A stretch of DNA of 44,330 nt, taken from IMG/VR virus record IMGVR_UViG_3300010384_000013, one strand, 5' to 3'. The position numbers and the translations under genes were made by a program. This DNA is from a virus. Every line of letters begins with the position of its first letter. The first letter of the stretch is position 1. A model generated the notes under the pieces. It searched no databases. It worked only from the letters and a program-made list of their open reading frames with translations, and was not told the DNA's origin. Positions 1,291-11,482 of this stretch are shown in pieces.

Positions 1291-1502
1291 TTCTGGTGCT
1301 TCGCCAGCCATCTTTGGGTCTCCGAAAAGCGTTCGGCCCTATCGGCATCTATGAGGAGATCGGTGGCCAGGCGCCGGGCTTCATCTGGGGTGAGCGCGGT
1401 CTCGAAGAAGGTTTCCGGGCTATCCGTGGGAACCTTGATCACGACGAGGTGCGGGCGCTCGCTCATGATGACGCGGGGGAGAAACAGGACTCGGCGGCTC
1501 AT
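1287..1502 (-). CDS. hypothetical protein
   Basis: 71-aa ORF. ATG at 1502 overlaps the stop of the 1499..2713 gene (ATGA coupling). Confidence 0.6.
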   Translation of the reverse strand: MSRRVLFLPRVIMSERPHLVVIKVPTDSPETFFETALTPDEARRLATDLLIDADRAERFSETQRWLAKHQK

Positions 1503-2713
1503 GCTGCTACTGTGAACCTATCAACTTCGCCCCGATCCTTGTGAAGCGTGATCGAAACCATATTGCGAGGGCTCTGATACCCCTCCCCCGCGTGCCAGGC
1601 ATCCTTGGCCGCCAATGTGTTGAAGCTCTCGGCCCGAAGCCCACGAAGTGTGTTCACGGCCAGTGCCTTCTCATTGTGGACGTGCCCTGTATACCCATAG
1701 CGGTATTTGGTTTTGCCCCACTGCTCTGGCCAATTGGCCGCTACAAAGCCGGCCATGTCGCCCATCCTAAGCTGATCGCCATGGGTTGCGGCGATCATGC
1801 AGGAGCCGTGCTGGCGCATGTAGAAGCGGGAGGGGCTGGTATCGACGGAGACACGTTCATTTGCCCGAAAATGGGCGGCGACGGCCACGGCGAGCATCAG
1901 GCTGGTTTCGTCGTCGTGATTGCCGGGGAGCTTCCGGTATTCCACGAAGTCATGCTTTTGAAGGGCAAGCTCGATGCACTGGATCACCAGTTCGAAGCCC
2001 ATCTGCACAACCTTGGCATAGCGGGAATCGACATCGAGCGGGTTGCCAGAGCGAGCGGTCTGGTTACGGCTGTTGTCTGCATGGAAATAATCGCCCAGAT
2101 CCAGCACTATGGCGTGACATGAATTGGCTGATCGGGAAACGAGATTGCCCATGCTCGATTTGAGCAGGCTGGAGGCTATCTTGATATCGTAGTCCGCTCC
2201 AGTCTCCTTGGCCCATGAGAACATCCCAAGGTGGAGGTCTGCGATCGGATAGACGGTCAGGAGATCGTCGTTGGTAAATGATGGAGGGGAAATGAGTGGC
2301 GCCGGCTCATAGGATTGTAGCGCATCTTTGATGGCTTCCGAGAGAACGGGGGCATTGCCCTCTCTCGTCTTTACCCATTGCTGGACAGTTCGGCCATCGG
2401 CATCCAGCAGGGCAGATACGCCCTTCACAATATGGCCGTCAGGAACGGCGAACTCCTCTCCGGCTTCACGGGTTTGCTTTACCCATGAATCGCCTTCCTT
2501 GGTGGCTACGGATTTGATTTCGAAGCCAGGTAGCGTCTTGGTAGGCCCCAACATACCCTTGAGCGCTGCGGCCTTTATGCGATTCTGGAATGTGCCTCTG
2601 GCTAAGCCAAGAGCTTCAGCGGCATGGGAGGTATTGCCGTTCGCAGCATTCAAGGCATCGACTGCCTGCCGCGCGAGTTCGTCCGTCAGCTTGGGCTGCG
2701 GCATGCGCGTCAC
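1499..2713 (-). CDS. Fis-type HTH / calcineurin-like metallophosphoesterase fusion protein
   Basis: The N-terminus carries GNTSHAAEALGLARGTFQNRIK (Fis-family HTH pattern). The C-terminal half has the five metallophosphoesterase motifs: DLHLG, GDYFH, GNHD, THGD, GHVHN. Confidence 0.85.
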   Translation of the reverse strand: MTRMPQPKLTDELARQAVDALNAANGNTSHAAEALGLARGTFQNRIKAAALKGMLGPTKTLPGFEIKSVATKEGDSWVKQTREAGEEFAVPDGHIVKGVSALLDADGRTVQQWVKTREGNAPVLSEAIKDALQSYEPAPLISPPSFTNDDLLTVYPIADLHLGMFSWAKETGADYDIKIASSLLKSSMGNLVSRSANSCHAIVLDLGDYFHADNSRNQTARSGNPLDVDSRYAKVVQMGFELVIQCIELALQKHDFVEYRKLPGNHDDETSLMLAVAVAAHFRANERVSVDTSPSRFYMRQHGSCMIAATHGDQLRMGDMAGFVAANWPEQWGKTKYRYGYTGHVHNEKALAVNTLRGLRAESFNTLAAKDAWHAGEGYQSPRNMVSITLHKDRGEVDRFTVAA

Positions 2714-2740: not shown

Positions 2741-3187
2741 TCAGGGAATGGAGACGGCCGGCTGCTCTGCCTGCTTGGGCAGCAAGCCTTGGACGGGTGG
2801 CGGGCCGTCGTATTGGACACCACCATCCTGCCCTACGATGGCTTGGATGTTGCCTTGTCCGCCCTCGCCTTCAGCGGCATCCTTGGCCGCCTGCAGTTGA
2901 TTGGCTGCTGTCGCGCTGTAGGGCATTTTGTAATACGTAGGCTGCATATCGCCGGATTTTAGAAGCACGAAGATAGCTACATCGACTTGGATATCGGCGC
3001 CCAGAACGGTGTACTTGCCGGGCTTCGGAGCATGGGGAATCGGCATCCCGAGCGGGACGTAGATTGCGAACGCAGCCAGAGCGACCGCCAGCGGCAAGGA
3101 CAGGGCAGCAAGCCGCCGGCCGGCCATCCACGCGAACAGGCAAAGGACGCAAGCGAGCAACAGCCATGTGCTGGCAAGCAAGATCAT
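2741..3187 (-). CDS. membrane protein with 2 predicted N-terminal TM segments and a periplasmic C-terminal domain
   Basis: 148-aa ORF. Hydrophobic segments are LLASTWLLLACVLCLFAW and LSLPLAVALAAFAIYVPLG. The ATG overlaps the stop of 3184..3723. Confidence 0.75.
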   Translation of the reverse strand: MILLASTWLLLACVLCLFAWMAGRRLAALSLPLAVALAAFAIYVPLGMPIPHAPKPGKYTVLGADIQVDVAIFVLLKSGDMQPTYYKMPYSATAANQLQAAKDAAEGEGGQGNIQAIVGQDGGVQYDGPPPVQGLLPKQAEQPAVSIP

Positions 3188-3723
3188 TGCGCGCTCCTGA
3201 TGGCTTTGAAGACGTGGTTCTCCGACCCGGCGACCAACTTCCCCTGCCCGTCGAGCTTGAAGCGTAGGACGGTACGCTCCTGCTTGGGCCGAATTTCGAG
3301 GCTGGTCTTGTCGAGGAGAGAACCGTTGAGCGATATCTTGACGCTCACGGTGAGCGGTTCCTGAAGGCTGTAGCCGTGCACGTTGATTATGTACTCGCCT
3401 GCCGGCGTTGAGCGCGCGAAGGCATCTTCGCAGTTCGTCGGGCCGTCGTCATTCACAATGCCCATGTCATCGAACAGAAGAGACCATACCGGCCCCGATT
3501 TCCGGCTGTAGCCAATCGCCTTGTCGTCCTTGGGGCCGAATACCCAGAGGTCGACATCGGTAGGGCCGTTGGGCCAGCATGCTTGCACGGCAATGGTGCC
3601 GGGAGGTGGGAGGCTTTCCTCATTCTTGGCAATCGGGTTGATCTGAGCAAGGACGAGCACGACAAGCGCCGTGAGGCCCAGAAGCATGTTCATGAGCAGA
3701 TCACGAACGAGGATTGGCGTCAT
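3184..3723 (-). CDS. ExbD/TolR-like single-pass membrane protein with a beta-sandwich-like periplasmic domain
   Basis: MTPILVRDLLMNMLLGLTALVVLVLA resembles the ExbD/TolR TM (TPfIDvmLvLLiiF) and includes the acidic residue. ATG 3723 overlaps the upstream stop (ATGA). An alternative start at 3756 is possible. Confidence 0.6.
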   Translation of the reverse strand: MTPILVRDLLMNMLLGLTALVVLVLAQINPIAKNEESLPPPGTIAVQACWPNGPTDVDLWVFGPKDDKAIGYSRKSGPVWSLLFDDMGIVNDDGPTNCEDAFARSTPAGEYIINVHGYSLQEPLTVSVKISLNGSLLDKTSLEIRPKQERTVLRFKLDGQGKLVAGSENHVFKAIRSAQ

Positions 3724-4118
3724 TTGCCGATCACCCAGGCGTTGATGCTTATCCAAAGTGCCGCCACAGCCCCCACGAGCGTGCTACAGAAGGCAACACC
3801 CATCCCGGCGAGCAATGACGCCGCGACCTTCTGGACGCCCTCTGCGGAGCCAAGAGAGCCTGTGTCGATGTTCTGGAGGGCAATGATGAAGCCGACGACG
3901 TTGCCGATGAGGCCGAGCGTCACAAGCCACACTTCGGCGCGCTCTAGATGCCCTGTCTTACCAAAGAACACGCCGATCATGGAGGCGACAAACAGCGCCG
4001 AAATCAGGTAGCTTATATGTGAGACATCGTGCGTGAAGACGAAGCCAACATAGCCCAGCCACCAGGCCCAAGCGAGGAAACAGCAGAAGCCGAAGTTGAG
4101 GATTGCGAGCCGGATCAC
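3720..4118 (-). CDS. minimal MotA/TolQ/ExbB-like proton-channel family protein (132 aa, ~4 TM)
   Basis: The C-terminal half is LGLIGNVVGFIIAL...KVAASLLAGMGVAFCSTLVGAVAALWISIN. This parallels the ExbB/TolQ signature GLfGTVwGim...gIaeALlaTaiGLvaAiPa. Start and stop overlap the neighbouring genes. Confidence 0.65.
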   Translation of the reverse strand: MIRLAILNFGFCCFLAWAWWLGYVGFVFTHDVSHISYLISALFVASMIGVFFGKTGHLERAEVWLVTLGLIGNVVGFIIALQNIDTGSLGSAEGVQKVAASLLAGMGVAFCSTLVGAVAALWISINAWVIGK

Positions 4119-4447
4119 GTCGGGTCTCCCTTGCCGGGGCCGAGGTCGGTCCAGTTATCGCCAGTTCCGATCACACATGCGCGACCGGCGGTGTCCACGA
4201 TGACCATGGTCCAACTCTTTCCCTCCGGGGATTCGAAGAGCGTCCAAGCGATCTGGCTTTTCTCACCAGCGAGGCCGGCGGCGGCAGGTTGCTCGTGGAA
4301 TTTCTCCAGCAAAGCGGCCTGGAGCGTCTTGTAGTCGGTACACGCGGCAGGGCCAGCGTTTGCCGGCGACAGCGCCATGACGATGCAAAGGATGAAGAAG
4401 GCGCACAGGACGCAGAACGCAAGTCGCACTCGGGGAGTCATACCCAC
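4115..4447 (-). CDS. secreted or periplasmic small protein (signal peptide)
   Basis: N-terminus RVRLAFCVLCAFFILCIVMALSPANA followed by GPAAC. 110 aa. Its stop overlaps the start of 3720..4118. Confidence 0.75.
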   Translation of the reverse strand: MGMTPRVRLAFCVLCAFFILCIVMALSPANAGPAACTDYKTLQAALLEKFHEQPAAAGLAGEKSQIAWTLFESPEGKSWTMVIVDTAGRACVIGTGDNWTDLGPGKGDPT

Positions 4448-4477: not shown

Positions 4478-4651
4478 CTAGTCCCGGTCGCGGCCCGATA
4501 GCTTCGCGATGATCTGCACCAACAACCAGGCGCAGCCGAGGATTGGCAGCAAAAGCGCTGCTGTTTGGGAGATGTCAGCCAGCGAGGGCATCCACCAGGG
4601 GGAGACGGCGGCGCCGGCGGCAATCACGTTTGTCACCTTGTCGATGGTCAT
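4478..4651 (-). CDS. small membrane protein (57 aa, below the ORF-track cutoff)
   Basis: GGAGGCGAA precedes the ATG at 4651, which overlaps the o-spanin stop (ATGA). Sequence MTIDKVTNVIAAGAAVSPWWMPSLADISQTAALLLPILGCAWLLVQIIAKLSGRDRD. Confidence 0.5.
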   Translation of the reverse strand: MTIDKVTNVIAAGAAVSPWWMPSLADISQTAALLLPILGCAWLLVQIIAKLSGRDRD

Positions 4652-4908
4652 TTCGCCTCCAGTACGGAGGCAGCTTTCGCCAGCGCTCCATGGCGCTTAG
4701 CGCAGATTGACAATGAGACTCGATCCTTTGCCCAGAGGCGGCTTACCTCGGCTTCAGTCAGATCCCGCTCGGGAATGGTGACGACGCCAGCGCAGGCTTG
4801 CTTGAGCGATTGCGGAATCTTGGCGGTGACAGGCGGCAGGACAGAATGGCGGCTGAAGGAGGCGCAGCCACCGAGGGCGAGCACGGCGCATAGGAGCAAG
4901 GTTCTCAT
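4648..4908 (-). CDS. o-spanin (outer-membrane lipoprotein spanin subunit)
   Basis: Signal peptide with lipobox LALGGC. 86 aa. It lies immediately after, and overlaps, the i-spanin gene. Confidence 0.75.
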   Translation of the reverse strand: MRTLLLCAVLALGGCASFSRHSVLPPVTAKIPQSLKQACAGVVTIPERDLTEAEVSRLWAKDRVSLSICAKRHGALAKAASVLEAK

Positions 4909-5294
4909 CGGCCCACTCCGTTTAGCGCTTTCGCAACACCCTTCGATATCGCCGGCTTCTTGTCTGCGCCAGCGGCGTGGATGGCTTCCTCAAGCGCGCT
5001 CTGCGTATCGGCAAGTTGCCCTTGGATAGAGAGGTATTCGGCTTCGATCTGGTTGATGGCACGCTGGTCGGCGGCGGCTTTGGCGAGCTGTTTGGCTTCG
5101 TCCTCTTCGCGCTGCGCGACCCATGCCGAACGCTCTTTCGCCGCGCCGGCCGTATAACCCTCGTTATAACGGTGCGCTGACCATGCCCAGAAGCCACCCA
5201 CAGCGAGCGCGGCAATCATCGCATAGGAAATCACCGCTGAGAGCATGGAGGACAGCCCTGTGGCCCGCCCTACCCAGAGGATCAAAGCGGCCAT
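4905..5294 (-). CDS. i-spanin (inner-membrane spanin subunit)
   Basis: N-terminal TM (SAVISYAMIAALAVGGFWAW) followed by a charged coiled-coil-like region. Position is between the endolysin and the lipoprotein. Confidence 0.7.
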   Translation of the reverse strand: MAALILWVGRATGLSSMLSAVISYAMIAALAVGGFWAWSAHRYNEGYTAGAAKERSAWVAQREEDEAKQLAKAAADQRAINQIEAEYLSIQGQLADTQSALEEAIHAAGADKKPAISKGVAKALNGVGR

Positions 5295-5398
5295 AGCAGG
5301 ATCAACCCAGCGAGAGCGACGATGCCGACGAGGAACAGGCCGATCTCTGCGGCGTATTCCTCAATGAGGGCGGAGAAGACGGCTTTGAGATTTTCCAT
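5282..5398 (-). CDS. small single-TM protein in the lysis cassette (38 aa)
   Basis: Internal ATG 5398 gives MENLKAVFSALIEEYAAEIGLFLVGIVALAGLILLWPL. The longer 73-aa ORF would overlap the endolysin. Confidence 0.4.
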   Translation of the reverse strand: MENLKAVFSALIEEYAAEIGLFLVGIVALAGLILLWPL

Positions 5399-5433
5399 CA
5401 GCGCAGCCCCCGCAAGCATAGGGCGCGCTCTTC

Positions 5434-5859
5434 CTACCGGCGCTTGGTCAGGCCCGGGAGACGAATTCCGCGCGACTTGTCCCACATCAGCAACGCATCG
5501 CAAGCGCCGCGAAGGTTGCCCTGATTGGCGCGGCTGGCGACGGACGACTTGCAGAAGTTTCCCGTCCCGGCATTGTAGGTGAAGGACAGGAACGCCGCGT
5601 ACGCGTTGTCAGGAATAGTGTCCGGCGAGGCGAGGCATTTGCGCATACCCGTCTCGAACTCGGCCAGCCGGTCAATCAGCATGTCTTTGCATTCGGCCGG
5701 CGTCTTGTGATCGCCCATCTTCACGCCACGGGTTTCCCCGAAGCAGATCGTTGGGATGCCCACCGGATCGCGGTAGGCGTAGGTTCGTAGCCCCTCGAAT
5801 CCAGACACGAGTGCGACGACGGAGGCGGCGAGCGCCCCGCCCTTTTTCATGCGGCTCAT
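5434..5859 (-). CDS. SAR endolysin, GH24 lysozyme family
   Basis: FEGLRTYAYRDPVGIPTICFGET is the lambda R / T4 lysozyme catalytic region. It is preceded by a weakly hydrophobic Gly/Ala-rich N-terminus (GGALAASVVALVSG) typical of signal-anchor-release endolysins. Confidence 0.9.
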   Translation of the reverse strand: MSRMKKGGALAASVVALVSGFEGLRTYAYRDPVGIPTICFGETRGVKMGDHKTPAECKDMLIDRLAEFETGMRKCLASPDTIPDNAYAAFLSFTYNAGTGNFCKSSVASRANQGNLRGACDALLMWDKSRGIRLPGLTKRR

Positions 5860-5868
5860 GGTATTCTC

Positions 5869-6066
5869 CTAGTCGTTTCGGTAGAGGTGCCCGATGCCAG
5901 AGGCGATGGCGAAGAACAGGCCAAGGCCGGCATAGACGAGCGGGGGAATGGGCAGCGTTCCCTCGAACAGGGGCCATACGCTCGCCAGCGCTTCACAGAT
6001 CATCATGAGGACGGCCAGATACGCGGCGTGGAAGCGGACCCGCCTGCCGATGGTCTTCTTGCGCAT
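5869..6066 (-). CDS. holin candidate (65 aa, 2 TM; pinholin-like given the SAR endolysin)
   Basis: ATG 6066 gives MRKKTIGRRVRFHAAYLAVLMMICEALASVWPLFEGTLPIPPLVYAGLGLFFAIASGIGHLYRND, directly upstream of the endolysin. The 198-aa ORF-track version overlaps the fibre gene and looks non-coding at its N-terminus. Confidence 0.6.
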   Translation of the reverse strand: MRKKTIGRRVRFHAAYLAVLMMICEALASVWPLFEGTLPIPPLVYAGLGLFFAIASGIGHLYRND

Positions 6067-6077
6067 TGGCGGCCAGC

Positions 6078-6692
6078 TCAAACTGATATGTAGAGCAGGT
6101 TGAAATTCACCTGCGAGTTGTTGTTGAAGTGGGTGTTGTCGAAATTGGCCCGGGCGCCGCCCGCTGATGGCCAATAGCCGAGGTTGAGAACGGCAGAATT
6201 CGCGCCGATGAAGGAGATCGGAGTCCCAGGAATGCTGGCCATGTTCAGCATCACCGAAATGCTGCCAGCCGTGCCCGTGGCGGTTATATTGGCTGATGTT
6301 ACCGGAAGACCGGTGATGGTGGCCGCCCCGGTGGCTGATCCTTTGTTTGACAGAATTATCGTTCCGGCGATGAGAACAAACGACCCCACTTTGCGGACTA
6401 CCGCAGTATTGAGGGAATAGGTTATGCCAGTTGACGCACCACCGAAGGCAAGCTGCGGTGTCCAACTTGCCGAACCGTCTGTCAGTAGTGCCGCGAGATT
6501 AGCGCTCGATGGCGTAGCCGCAAACGTGTCGAATCCCGACGCCCTGGTAACGCCAGCCCACGATGTCAGCGCGGCGGAGAGCGGCTGGAAGGCCGCTGTT
6601 AACCACTTCAGTAATTCATTGCGCCAGTCAGCGCTAAAAATACTTGGTGCTGGCATTGTGAGACTCTTGTAAGGGCCGTCCGGCAAGCGCAC
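6078..6692 (-). CDS. tail-fibre-associated protein (hypothetical)
   Basis: Gly/Ser/Thr/Ala-rich beta-type sequence, last gene of the fibre cluster. The start is uncertain (GTG 6692 or ATG 6656). Confidence 0.7.
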   Translation of the reverse strand: MRLPDGPYKSLTMPAPSIFSADWRNELLKWLTAAFQPLSAALTSWAGVTRASGFDTFAATPSSANLAALLTDGSASWTPQLAFGGASTGITYSLNTAVVRKVGSFVLIAGTIILSNKGSATGAATITGLPVTSANITATGTAGSISVMLNMASIPGTPISFIGANSAVLNLGYWPSAGGARANFDNTHFNNNSQVNFNLLYISV

Positions 6693-7852: not shown

Positions 7853-8745
7853 CCCGTCACCGTCAGCGTGCCGTTGATGGTGGTATTGCCCGCTGCCAGA
7901 GTGCTCGACAACGTAACCGCTCCCGTGACGGCGAGCGTGGACGAGAAAGAGCCGGTCGTCCCGGCTACTGTAGATGGCGTGGTCGCACCAAGCGTGCCGT
8001 TTAACGCCGCCCCCGTCAGCGTCTTGCCTGCCATCGTCGTCGGTAGCCTGGCATCTGCGACTGTGCCGGAAGCGATGTTGGAGCCATTGAGCGCGGTGAG
8101 GTTCGCGCCGGAAGCGGCGGGCAGAGTAGCCGGGAACCGGGCACCAGGTACAGTGCCAGATCCAAGATTAGATGCATTGAGCGCGGTGAGATTAGCACCC
8201 GAGACCGCTGGTAGAGTAGCAGGGAACCGCGCATCCGGGACGGTCCCGGTCGCCAGGTCGGAGGCCGAGCCGGAAAATGCGATGGCCGCCAAAGCTGCCA
8301 TGGATGGATTGATCAATACCCATGCGCCAGCCCCAGAATTCGCCGCAGTCGAATAGTACAGTAGGAAAATGCCGTTCGCCACGATATCCCCCGCCACGAG
8401 CGCGACATCGGCGGACGATCCTTGCTTGCGAATGGCCTTTGAGCCAAGGCCATTGACGTTCGCCGTCACCGCTCCCGTGTTGGTGGACGCCGCCTTGATG
8501 ACGAGGCGAAGACCTTGCTGGTAAGCGGTGAATGCCGAGTTGGCGGTAATGGTCAGGGCATTGGCCGTGCCGGTAGGCGTAAGCGCGCCGCCAAGGTCAT
8601 CCCTCAATTCAGCGATCCGCTCCATCATTACGCGGGCGGAGCCGTTCACTGTGCCGGGGAGTTGGTTCTCCAACCAATTGATATCGGCATCGGCCGTCTG
8701 GTTGTCATCGGGGGTCAGCGACCAATCGTAAATACTACCGGCCAT
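7849..8745 (-). CDS. tail fibre protein with internal 30-aa repeats
   Basis: The repeats GTVPDARFPATLPAVSGANLTALNASNLGS and GTVPGARFPATLPAASGANLTALNGSNIAS resemble the phage tail-fibre repeat. The N-terminus is conserved-looking (MAGSIYDWSLTPDDN). Confidence 0.85.
   Translation of the reverse strand: MAGSIYDWSLTPDDNQTADADINWLENQLPGTVNGSARVMMERIAELRDDLGGALTPTGTANALTITANSAFTAYQQGLRLVIKAASTNTGAVTANVNGLGSKAIRKQGSSADVALVAGDIVANGIFLLYYSTAANSGAGAWVLINPSMAALAAIAFSGSASDLATGTVPDARFPATLPAVSGANLTALNASNLGSGTVPGARFPATLPAASGANLTALNGSNIASGTVADARLPTTMAGKTLTGAALNGTLGATTPSTVAGTTGSFSSTLAVTGAVTLSSTLAAGNTTINGTLTVTG
8060..8250. repeat. 90-bp tandem repeat (2 good copies plus a degenerate flank) inside the fibre gene
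   Basis: cattgagcgcggtgag... begins at 8085 and again at 8175. The period of 90 bp equals the 30-aa protein repeat. Confidence 0.8.
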
Positions 8746-9776: not shown

Positions 9777-11482
9777 CGGCCCGCTATCGCCGGGACCGCT
9801 CCTTGCCGCAAGATAGCAGCCAATAGCGCGTTGGTGACGGGATTGAGCGAGCCCGTGGCGGCTTGGTTCCCAAGATAGCTTTGCACAGGAGCGCTCATCA
9901 GCGCGCGGCCGGCAACATAAGGAGCCGCTGCGCCAGCGATTGCGCCAGGCAAGTTAGCCACGGCATAGCCGAGGCCGGCCGAGCCCAACGGGGCTCCAAG
10001 ATTGCGCACAGCCGAGCGCGCCGCCGTCCCTGAGTTCGGTAGCGGCGTCATAATCGCCTGGCCAGCCTTCGCTAGGGCGTCGAAATCGCCCTTGCCCATG
10101 GCGAACTGTCCTCGCCGCCCCGTTGTGGCGGCAATGCGAAGCTGAGCGGGCGAAATCAGGCCCAAGCCGGCATTCTCGCCGCCGCCAGTTGCTGCCCGTT
10201 GGAGCACCTTCATGTTGCCGTATTGCTGGCGAAGCGCGGACCATGCGCCGGCATCGGCTGGATTGATAGAACGCTCCATGGCGCTATCGAGCGCATCGCG
10301 AATTCCGCGAAAGGCAGCACCGAGCGTCTGATTGTTGGTGGAACTGGCTGCACGAGAGAGGTCAGAGCGGATTGCCTGGTATTCAACGCCGGGGAGCGTT
10401 CCGCCGTTGGCGTTCACCCTCTCGACTAGATCGCCAAGAATATTCTGGATGATCGGCTTCTGCTGGGTCTCAAGAAGCTTGTTGTAGCGGGAAAACGTCT
10501 TGCCGACATCCTGCGCAAGCTGCTGATCGGCAACCATGGTGTTACGCGCGGATATATCGTTGAATGCCTGCCCGAGACGATCGTTGAGGGCCGAAAGATT
10601 GTCTGGCGTGGCGCGGCCGGAAGCGCCGGCCTTTTTCATCGCGGCATCGGTGAAGGCTTCCGCCTGCTTCTCCATCATGCCGGCGGCCTTTGACCCACCA
10701 AGCTCACTCTCAGCATACCGCAAGGCATTGGATCCGGTGCGTTGCCCGGCAGTGACAGGCACACCCTCTTGCAACAGGGTGGCTACCGCCGCTTCTCGCT
10801 CAGGGGATGATACGAATGGGCTGATGAGCCGCTTGGCGCCCTCGCTTAGGCCGGCGGCGACATATGGAGCCGCGAAGCCGGTCGCAAGTCCTACTCCGCC
10901 GCCAATCAGACCGCCCTTGGCGCGGTCAGTTAATGAGCCATCCGCATTGCCGGCCCCGAGAAGACCACCATAAATTCCGCTGTCCAGAGCCGAACCGAGC
11001 GCTACGCGACCCAAAGTGCCGCCAGATCGCGCCGCATTCATGCCGAAGCCGGCACCGCCGGTTGCTGCTGCTTGTGCCAGCCCCCCGCCAATCTGGCCCG
11101 CCAGATATGAACCAGGATTGTCCGACTGTGCTTTGCTAGCGTCGGCGCGCATCTCATGCAGCACTTGCTTGCGTGGCAGGCCAGAGATGGCGGAGCCAAG
11201 ATAGGATGCCAGTTCGTCACCAAAACCGAATGTGGTTGAGTTGGCCGCGCCCATGGCGGCAGAACCGGCCATGCCATAGTTCTGTGGTGAGTACGCAGGG
11301 ACGCCCGCCGGCTGTCCGGTGCTCGGATCGATTGCCGTTTCACGGGGAGCGCCATTCCGAATGGCTTTTGCGCGCTCGATGCCCGCCTGAGCGCGCGCAG
11401 CGGCATCATCAGTCCCGCCAGCCTTGAAATCTTCCCAAGGCTTCTTGCCCTGGGACTGATACTCTTCCCACGGAAGCGGCAT
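9773..11482 (-). CDS. large Gly/Ala-rich virion internal (ejection-type) protein, hypothetical
   Basis: 569-aa ORF in the run of internal-protein genes of a podovirus-type structural module. No enzymatic motif recognised. Confidence 0.8.
   Translation of the reverse strand: MPLPWEEYQSQGKKPWEDFKAGGTDDAAARAQAGIERAKAIRNGAPRETAIDPSTGQPAGVPAYSPQNYGMAGSAAMGAANSTTFGFGDELASYLGSAISGLPRKQVLHEMRADASKAQSDNPGSYLAGQIGGGLAQAAATGGAGFGMNAARSGGTLGRVALGSALDSGIYGGLLGAGNADGSLTDRAKGGLIGGGVGLATGFAAPYVAAGLSEGAKRLISPFVSSPEREAAVATLLQEGVPVTAGQRTGSNALRYAESELGGSKAAGMMEKQAEAFTDAAMKKAGASGRATPDNLSALNDRLGQAFNDISARNTMVADQQLAQDVGKTFSRYNKLLETQQKPIIQNILGDLVERVNANGGTLPGVEYQAIRSDLSRAASSTNNQTLGAAFRGIRDALDSAMERSINPADAGAWSALRQQYGNMKVLQRAATGGGENAGLGLISPAQLRIAATTGRRGQFAMGKGDFDALAKAGQAIMTPLPNSGTAARSAVRNLGAPLGSAGLGYAVANLPGAIAGAAAPYVAGRALMSAPVQSYLGNQAATGSLNPVTNALLAAILRQGAVPAIAGR

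Follow-up and report, generated by a model that had tools for sequence, protein, structure and literature searches.

Ion-driven motors of the 5:2 type are characterized by a ring of A-subunits, a single-helix B-subunit with an aspartate in the membrane, and an adjacent pair of genes encoding the two (PMC9389320). As reviewed, motAB, exbBD, and tolQR follow operon habits of adjacent or overlapping gene pairs (PMC9389320). One published survey mentions phages only in connection with phage defence and Zorya and not as carriers of such genes. The viral contig IMGVR_UViG_3300010384_000013 of IMG/VR, whose whole stretch of 44,330 nucleotides (nt) is called the window here, possesses four overlapping genes next to a lysis cassette, which are designated A, B, C, and D (Table 1; these letters are unrelated to the subunit names of the motors). 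On balance, proteins B, C, and D probably represent a reduced, phage-carried member of a new three-gene branch of the MotA/ExbB/TolQ ion-driven motors and would form a proton-driven envelope machine. An earlier note on this DNA, made from its letters alone, had proposed a four-gene module of the MotA/ExbB-ExbD kind on a phage.

Protein B matches the Pfam family PF01618 (MotA_ExbB) with 24.1 bits, where the gathering score is 22.9 (E = 3e-5), longer relatives of B reach 36.5 and 31.1 bits, and many B homologues, of which a word-indexed search found 162, carry a precomputed match to this family. A narrow profile of close homologues gave only E-values of 0.2-5 against the PDB, with every match being a ZorA or MotA chain. 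When a broad B-family profile of 46 diverse members was searched against the PDB, the best match was MotA (8gqy, E = 5e-7), followed by a ZorA-like chain (8vvn, 1e-6), TolQ (1.6e-5), ExbB (1.8e-4), ZorA (2e-4), and PomA (4e-4). All significant matches of the broad profile (E <0.01) are A-subunits of 5:2 motors, and the lone unrelated chain in the list, the designed helical protein 6m6z, has an E-value of 0.014. In the alignment of this profile, GLIGT of the B family falls on GLFGT of TolQ, and TTLVG falls on ATAIG of TolQ; following established knowledge of the Ton/Tol systems, these regions are taken here to be the two threonine-bearing channel helices. The conserved motifs of B read GLIG(N/T)VVGF and GMGVAFCSTLVG. 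Positions G69, G72, T/N73, G76, G105, T113, and G116 are conserved among 126 sequences, and the polar channel residues are kept in sequences down to 25% identity. Judged by these matches, B belongs to the MotA/TolQ/ExbB superfamily, and the type that the earlier note had assigned to it is upheld by both the Pfam score and the PDB profile.

The best matches of B in PADLOC and NCBIfam are ZorA models at about 1e-5, far under the curated cut-offs (13-22 bits for the NCBIfam ZorA models against cut-offs of 100-700), and the NCBIfam scores for tolQ, exbB, and MotA are likewise far sub-threshold. By its scores, therefore, B falls outside the ZorA, TolQ, ExbB, and MotA families as NCBI defines them. 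Hydropathy analysis identified four hydrophobic segments in B, a cytoplasmic loop of a few residues at about positions 56-60 (GHLER), and a tail of two residues after the fourth transmembrane (TM) helix. B is thus predicted to be without any part able to touch a cytoplasmic partner.

Protein C, with a single hydrophobic segment, supplies the membrane aspartate. Asp8, located in the N-terminal TM helix (RDLLMNMLLGL), is present in 126 of 127 homologues and is retained even in those whose remaining helix sequence has diverged; variants of this helix read FVDVLLVLTIVL, close in look to TolR and ExbD. In the AlphaFold2 (AF2) model built from 43 sequences, which has a mean predicted local distance difference test score (pLDDT) of 89.3, a helix at residues 2-28 is followed by an eight-strand beta-sandwich at residues 41-157, and a conserved INP linker lies between the TM helix and the periplasmic beta-sandwich. 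The sandwich carries an acidic cluster in which D56, D58, D85, and E99 are invariant and D86 is conserved at 99%, which suggests a putative metal-binding site, possibly for Ca. The ATG at 3723 was taken as the start of C because the N-termini of homologues agree with it; a TTG at 3756 is a formal alternative. The word-indexed search found 188 homologues of C, and an exhaustive hidden Markov model (HMM) search found 1,809 C-family clusters at 50% identity, 1,253 of them at E<=1e-10; the top matches listed hardly vary in length.

The earlier note had described C as ExbD-like. The single helix with its near-invariant Asp bears out this description, whereas homology to ExbD does not follow from the searches: none of 68 C-family members (43 + 25) matched PF02472 (ExbD), MotB_plug, or OmpA in Pfam at E<=1, ExbD and TolR were absent from PDB profile searches with the C family, and no Pfam, PHROG, NCBIfam, or PADLOC model matches C. 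When C was aligned by hhalign with Escherichia coli ExbD and TolR, the probabilities were 4% and 2%, which is not significant, and the Asp helix alone was aligned. In that alignment, the Asp of C is in register with D25 of ExbD and D23 of TolR, a suggestive lead rather than proof of homology. The beta-sandwich that had been predicted in place of a TolR or OmpA domain is borne out by the AF2 model. A TolR/ExbD alpha/beta fold for the periplasmic part of C was ruled out by the all-beta model and by the absence of such folds from the Foldseek matches, and an OmpA-like peptidoglycan-binding domain was ruled out by the fold and by the lack of OmpA or MotB_plug matches in Pfam. Foldseek returned no PDB match of the C model at E<1e-3; the matches in the PDB and BFVD are generic beta-sandwiches with best TM-scores of about 0.5-0.6, the best being a Ca-bound Bacteroidales protein, MmpS5, DUF4425, and a few viral proteins. 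The likeness to DUF2135 (PF09906) is weaker than had been claimed: 3 of 25 diverse C members match it, the best with E = 0.003 and 18 bits, short of the gathering score of 22, and C of the window has no DUF2135 match. Two of the same 25 match PPC, the C-family profile has a weak PDB match to the jelly-roll domain of a subtilisin-like protease (E = 0.2-0.35), and the family carries a W..D.DLW motif. Together, these features hint at a sandwich of the PPC/DUF2135 type.

The linkage of the genes was analysed in 132 loci, composed of 48 IMG/VR contigs that the B profile retrieved, 80 GTDB species-genome contigs taken from 166 C-profile-positive stretches, and 4 isolated-phage records. By tblastn, B lies directly upstream of C in all of the first 50 loci, including those in which B has only 25-35% identity. 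Across the whole set, HMMs detect C in 131 loci and B in 130; the exceptions are due to a contig end or to a B too divergent for the HMM and yet visible by eye. A D protein follows C on the same strand in 123 loci. Outside this cluster, six of eight loci still encode a protein with two N-terminal TM helices after C (e.g., L037, L048-L050, and L052), and the contigs of L069 and L104 stop about 400-450 nt past C, leaving the D slot unread. The order is always B-C-D on a single strand, and no further neighbour comes near that frequency (exonuclease after D in phage-type loci, 28; trypsin-like protease, 25; spanin-like, 25; lysozyme, 22; A, 17). Because B, C, and D are near-universal and A occurs in only 17 of the loci, the unit is the B-C-D trio, and the four-gene unit of the earlier note was rejected. 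The trio is kept across unrelated phages and genomes. At the level of sequence and operon, the B-C pair therefore shows the traits of 5:2 motors, namely gene adjacency with an ATGA overlap and an Asp in the membrane.

Insertions into the cassette were also observed. Homing endonuclease genes lie inside it in the Rhizobium phages RHph_TM3_3_14B (L002, 5200-5958) and RHph_X2_25 (L001, 4526-5068); a Seg-like gene is placed exactly between B and C in one phage, and an HNH gene between C and D in another. In the IMG/VR contig L034, the N-terminal and C-terminal parts of B (6001-6165 and 10003-10242) are about 3.8 kb apart, which suggests an insertion within B by an intron, a homing element, or another sequence.

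Protein D, for which the word-indexed search found 53 homologues, has an N-terminal hairpin of two TM helices with an RR loop and a Pro-rich C-terminal tail (...PPPVQGLLPKQAEQP...). The RR loop should be cytoplasmic, which would place the remainder of D in the periplasm. In the AF2 model (pLDDT 66.5), a small domain of three strands, a helix, and two strands is followed by the disordered Pro-rich tail. D has no Pfam, PHROG, NCBIfam, or PADLOC match; Foldseek gave weak matches resembling the oligonucleotide/oligosaccharide-binding fold on this low-confidence model, none of which is significant or was relied on, and neither TonB nor TolA was among them. Distant D proteins have the same build, including a Pro-rich C-terminus with a conserved Lys. 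The earlier note had placed a two-TM protein in the position of tonB or tolA, and this position after C is conserved. The likeness of D to TonB and TolA is limited to the short Pro-rich tail, and a TonB/TolA-type transducer was ruled out by the two TM helices and the absence of any TonB/TolA domain signal.

Protein A has one N-terminal hydrophobic segment resembling a signal peptide (...ANA/GP), in agreement with the earlier note, and matches the function-less PHROG family phrog_25396 (1.4e-11). The slot upstream of B varies: in addition to A and the trypsin-like protease, a 181-aa secreted protein occupies it in 13 of the 132 loci. This variety of secreted proteins hints at a periplasmic accessory function, and A is an exchangeable secreted accessory rather than part of the core. 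Examples of the slot are L051 4187-5086 (p036 of phage 16-3, the trypsin-like protease), L003 5459-6004, and L050 7531-8049, and the 181-aa signal-peptide protein has an 'I(T/K)NDGGG...Y' motif.

Open reading frame (ORF) calling and direct reading of the DNA confirmed the four overlapping genes downstream of the lysis cassette, and all peptide strings quoted in the earlier note were found in the translations. The stop of A and the start of B overlap in GTGA at 4118/4115, and ATGA overlaps join B to C at 3723/3720 and C to D at 3187/3184. The coordinates of these genes and of their neighbours are collected in Table 1.

Table 1. Genes of the trio and its surroundings in the window (lengths in amino acids, aa; HTH, helix-turn-helix; SAR, signal-arrest-release).
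Feature	Positions	Strand	Description
A	4115-4447	-	110 aa, secreted, signal peptide; coupled to B here, variable accessory
B	3720-4118	-	132 aa, 4-TM, assigned as minimal MotA/TolQ/ExbB-family subunit
C	3184-3723	-	179 aa from ATG, single-pass, Asp8 in TM helix, predicted periplasmic beta-sandwich
D	2741-3187	-	148 aa, 2-TM N-terminal hairpin, small beta/alpha domain, Pro-rich tail
Candidate holin, 2-TM	about 5869-6066	-	Precedes endolysin gene
Endolysin	5434-5859	-	PF00959, E 1e-36; SAR-like N-terminus
i-spanin, Rz-like	4905-5294	-	Lysis cassette
o-spanin, lipoprotein	4648-4908	-	Lysis cassette
57-aa membrane protein	4478-4651	-	One strong C-terminal hydrophobic segment
404-aa protein	1499-2713	-	Fis-type HTH (HTH_8, 7e-6) and metallophosphoesterase 'DNA repair exonuclease' (phrog_704, 3e-100)

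The window also encodes a portal protein, a large terminase, a major head protein, a DNA-ejection protein, and an integrase, and the contig is therefore a temperate phage or prophage, as the earlier note had stated; the label "podovirus-type" is plausible. The lysis cassette (4478-6066) is neighbouring context and lies outside the module. Its candidate holin (MRKKTIGRR...) is embedded in the 3' portion of a longer ORF immediately upstream of the endolysin, and residues 8-24 of the endolysin (KKGGALAASVVALVSGFEG) are weakly hydrophobic and Gly/Ala/Ser-rich, resembling a SAR signal-anchor. The 57-aa protein, which has no family match, is coupled to the o-spanin through an ATGA overlap at 4651/4648 and is kept after the spanins in several related contigs (L003, L007, L023, L025, and L026). 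A simple scan of the minus strand from the lysis genes to D found no sigma-70-like promoter and no terminator-like site separating them; its sole terminator-like match, at 3496-3480, is weak and lies within the C gene. Since no such site other than this weak match occurs between the lysis cassette and D, genes A-D are apparently co-transcribed with the lysis genes.

This arrangement raises the explanation that the complex serves lysis timing by conducting protons or sensing the gradient, so as to advance or delay the depolarization that fires a pinholin and a SAR-type endolysin. The trio of the window follows a holin, a SAR-like endolysin, and spanins directly and in apparent co-transcription, and about 22-25 phage loci have lysis genes on the same strand no more than about 3 kb upstream; in addition, L038 has a lysozyme-like gene immediately after D, and L047 has genes for a peptidase, a lipoprotein, and a small membrane protein ahead of B. 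Such a role is nevertheless unlikely, because phages of the RHph_N3_13 and P10VF types hold the trio among replication or early-middle genes, the chromosomal relatives have no lysis context, and the lysis cassette of the window is complete without the trio; moreover, a simple leak would need neither a conserved periplasmic domain nor a third partner.

The 404-aa exonuclease gene begins 27 nt past D and has a homologue in phage 16-3 (p044). A functional tie between this gene and the trio was not established, as no long-B locus has it and many phage loci lack it. Metallophosphoesterase-type nucleases occur just past D in several unrelated phage types, including the window and 16-3 (L051, 7550-8812); a 254-aa enzyme of this type is encoded downstream of D in L050 (6057-6821), and gp47/46-like nuclease subunits are encoded close to the trio of P10VF (L133, 5598-8207). 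The presence of a nuclease gene near D may reflect shared early-gene synteny or a functional link.

Two forms of the trio can be distinguished by the length of B. The median length of the B core is 139 aa in viral contigs versus 204 aa in genomes, where 52 of 78 B proteins have at least 190 aa. The extra residues of long B consist of an insertion between TM2 and TM3 and a C-terminal helix, and this part is the usual ExbB/TolQ-like cytoplasmic portion. Phage-type neighbours occur with short B only. The neighbours of long B (125 from 16 loci) belong to housekeeping families such as IMPDH, RsmB, Hda, Ppx, TrkH, AnmK, and ABC transporters, among others, and none of the 25 commonest families shown for these loci is a phage or integrase family. 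From the difference in length and the contexts, a chromosomal form and a reduced phage form are therefore distinguished, and the module is not restricted to phages. A three-gene operon with a 204-aa B is found in L113, L127, L115, and about 50 other genome loci (at about 8001-8550 in each) of Rhodospirillales, SAR116, Rhodobacterales, and others, and appears to constitute an independent, as yet uncharacterised envelope system of cells. In a neighbour-joining tree of C, neither the phage form nor the cellular form could be placed as ancestral.

Among isolated phages, 29 of 50,697 records carry a C homologue, and all of these phages infect Rhizobium or Sinorhizobium. The carriers span at least five unrelated genome types. 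In the temperate phage 16-3 and its relatives, p038, p040, and p042 correspond to B, C, and D, respectively, with the trypsin-like protease p036 upstream; the trio is also present in RHph_X2_25 and RHph_TM3_3_14B and in the 171-kb phage RHph_I1_18. In the 68-kb RHph_N3_13 group, it is flanked by the genes for endonuclease I and thymidylate synthase, with DNA polymerase I close by. In the lytic 152-158-kb myoviruses of the Pootjesviridae, such as P10VF, it corresponds to genes 191-193, which have topoisomerase II on one side and the genes for a gp55-like sigma factor and gp46/47-like nuclease subunits on the other. Among metagenomes and genomes, the matches reach as far as Rhodobacterales, Rhodospirillales, SAR116, Geminicoccaceae, and a few Beta- and Gammaproteobacteria. 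The retention of the trio in lytic phages and its place among early or middle genes favour a lytic-cycle role over lysogenic conversion, and the ideas of a lysogen defence and of a Zorya-like function are weakened by its occurrence in large lytic myoviruses.

A possible mechanism is proposed for the trio as an ion-driven motor. As in the solved 5:2 complexes, a dimer of C would have its membrane helices enclosed by several copies of B. Protons may pass from the periplasm through B to the invariant Asp of C and from there to the cytoplasm, and each passage could drive one step of movement of B relative to C. Since B has no cytoplasmic domain, work could be delivered only in the membrane or the periplasm, and this delivery would probably occur via D and the acidic, possibly Ca-binding, beta-sandwich of C. 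With its hairpin, small periplasmic domain, and Pro-rich tail, D could act as an adaptor, in the role that TonB has for ExbBD or TolA for TolQR. The phages would make the cassette during lytic growth, in the window apparently in one transcript with the lysis genes, and the cassette may act on some feature of the envelope of alphaproteobacterial hosts.

Several points weigh against this proposal. The Pfam score of B is barely over the threshold, and B of the window has Asn at position 73, where GLIGT has Thr, as do 28 of the 126 homologues. All solved A-subunits possess a sizeable cytoplasmic part that is absent in B, so that a pentamer of B alone is putative, and the 5:2 stoichiometry is assumed by analogy. 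C and D have no significant similarity in sequence or fold to ExbD, TolR, MotB, ZorB, TonB, or TolA, the confidence of the D model is low, and no gene in the neighbourhood of the trio identifies a target. The marginal score of B and the lack of recognisable relatives of C and D are also what would be expected if B, C, and D were ordinary conserved membrane proteins, with B keeping the MotA/ExbB helical hairpin without ion-coupled movement. This explanation is considered quite improbable, given that the charged residue in the membrane is kept in 99% of the C proteins, that the polar channel residues of B persist at 25% identity, that the genes are strictly linked across unrelated phages and bacteria, and that the significant PDB matches of the B profile are A-subunits of 5:2 motors throughout.

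If the trio is a reduced ion-driven motor, it would be the first virus-encoded member of the 5:2 motors found in the literature searched. No description of a phage-encoded MotA/ExbB-like system was found there; most subscription journals were outside its coverage, and this absence is not proof. Searches of PHROGs, PADLOC, and NCBIfam likewise gave no described system that matches, as the earlier note had anticipated, and PHROGs has no family for B, C, or D. Across Pfam, PHROGs, NCBIfam, PADLOC, and the literature searched, the obligate trio, the C and D families, the minimal phage B, and the spread over unrelated rhizobiophages appear to be new; the MotA/TolQ/ExbB label is already known, as NCBI has automatically named some B homologues "MotA/TolQ/ExbB proton channel family protein". 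An A-subunit of 132-140 aa that is cut down to its membrane core would provide a natural minimal model for the coupling of proton flow to movement, and conservation in at least five unrelated lineages of rhizobiophages, both temperate and lytic, would point to an infection step peculiar to the envelope of Alphaproteobacteria. With the chromosomal form, a new system that energises the envelope would join Ton, Tol, Mot, Agl, Gld, and Zorya. A more far-reaching version, which is somewhat less likely to hold than to fail, is that the trio represents a third, unrecognised periplasmic force machine of the Ton/Tol kind with its own axle (C) and adaptor (D), native to alphaproteobacterial chromosomes and repeatedly captured by phages; their MotA/ExbB-type subunit (about 135 aa, without a cytoplasmic domain) would be the smallest known, and the phages would remodel the envelope during infection by means of the host proton gradient. 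As phage 16-3 infects the genetically tractable Sinorhizobium meliloti, the question is directly testable with p038, p040, and p042.

Compared with MotA-MotB and PomA-PomB, the trio shares the overlap of the genes for the A- and B-subunits, and MotA is the best match of the B profile; the four-TM topology of B also resembles MotA and not the three-TM ExbB and TolQ. In contrast, B has no cytoplasmic TM2-TM3 loop of the kind that contacts FliG, and therefore no torque would be transferred to a flagellar rotor. C differs from MotB in having neither a plug nor an OmpA-like domain.

Like ZorA-ZorB of Zorya, the B-C pair would be a non-flagellar relative of MotAB that is tied to phage biology, and ZorA is both the top model for B in PADLOC and NCBIfam and among the PDB profile matches. 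A further explanation is that the trio acts in superinfection exclusion or as a Zorya-like sentinel, which would be expressed from the prophage or early in infection and would keep competing phages from entering or pass a signal to a nuclease. Exclusion is a common function of the early membrane proteins of lytic phages, ZorA models are the best matches of B in a defence database (about 1e-5), a nuclease-type gene follows D in 28 loci, and gp46/47-like nuclease genes are nearby in P10VF. On the other hand, the ZorA score of 22 bits stands against cut-offs of 100-700, so that B scores 4- to 30-fold under the family cut-offs; B has no long ZorA tail, and C has no ZorB peptidoglycan-binding domain. 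PADLOC found no ZorC, ZorD, or ZorE among A, C, D, the 57-aa protein, the exonuclease, and two small downstream genes, and C, D, and the exonuclease have no PADLOC match of any kind. The scan revealed no promoter or terminator belonging to the trio itself, such as morons usually have, and the trio is encoded by phages, including strictly lytic types, rather than directed against them, and occurs in housekeeping chromosomal contexts as well. Exclusion is therefore regarded as improbable.

A functional analogy exists with GldL-GldM (PorL-PorM), in which the A-subunit is small and the output is carried by periplasmic beta-sandwich domains of the B-subunit without a peptidoglycan anchor (PMC9389320). 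No relationship in sequence to this motor was detected, and no search aimed at one was made. Unlike C, GldM is much longer and reportedly has other charged residues; GldL has a cytoplasmic tail, which B does not, and the system is confined to Bacteroidota.

The Ton/Tol systems differ from the trio in several respects. B is about half the size of ExbB or TolQ and consists of four TM helices without a cytoplasmic domain; in C, a beta-sandwich takes the place of the TolR/ExbD alpha/beta domain, and PF02472 is not matched; and D has two TM helices without an SHLS-type helix or a TonB/TolA C-terminal domain. These differences bear on the explanation that the phage subunits interfere with or replace the host machinery by mixing with or out-competing ExbBD or TolQR, and so alter outer-membrane stability or the energization of receptors. 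The alignment of B with TolQ and ExbB over the channel helices speaks for such mixing, and the fact that all 29 isolated carrier phages infect rhizobia suggests a host-specific envelope target. However, the phage supplies a full B-C-D set whose C and D are unlike TolR, ExbD, TolA, and TonB, which points to a self-contained machine and not to a mimic of subunits, and the chromosomal versions coexist with normal genes in non-phage contexts; interference or replacement is thus held to be very doubtful. For a self-contained motor of B, C, and D, the likeness to ExbB-ExbD-TonB and TolQ-TolR-TolA extends to the same order of a channel subunit, a single-pass subunit with an Asp, and a membrane-anchored periplasmic partner. 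B aligns with TolQ and ExbB across two channel helices including the GxxGT and T-containing motifs, the Asp of C falls in the register of ExbD D25 and TolR D23 in the non-significant alignment, and output to the periplasm is probable, as in these systems. By analogy, an output logic of the Ton/Tol or GldLM kind, rather than a flagellar one, is favoured for the trio.

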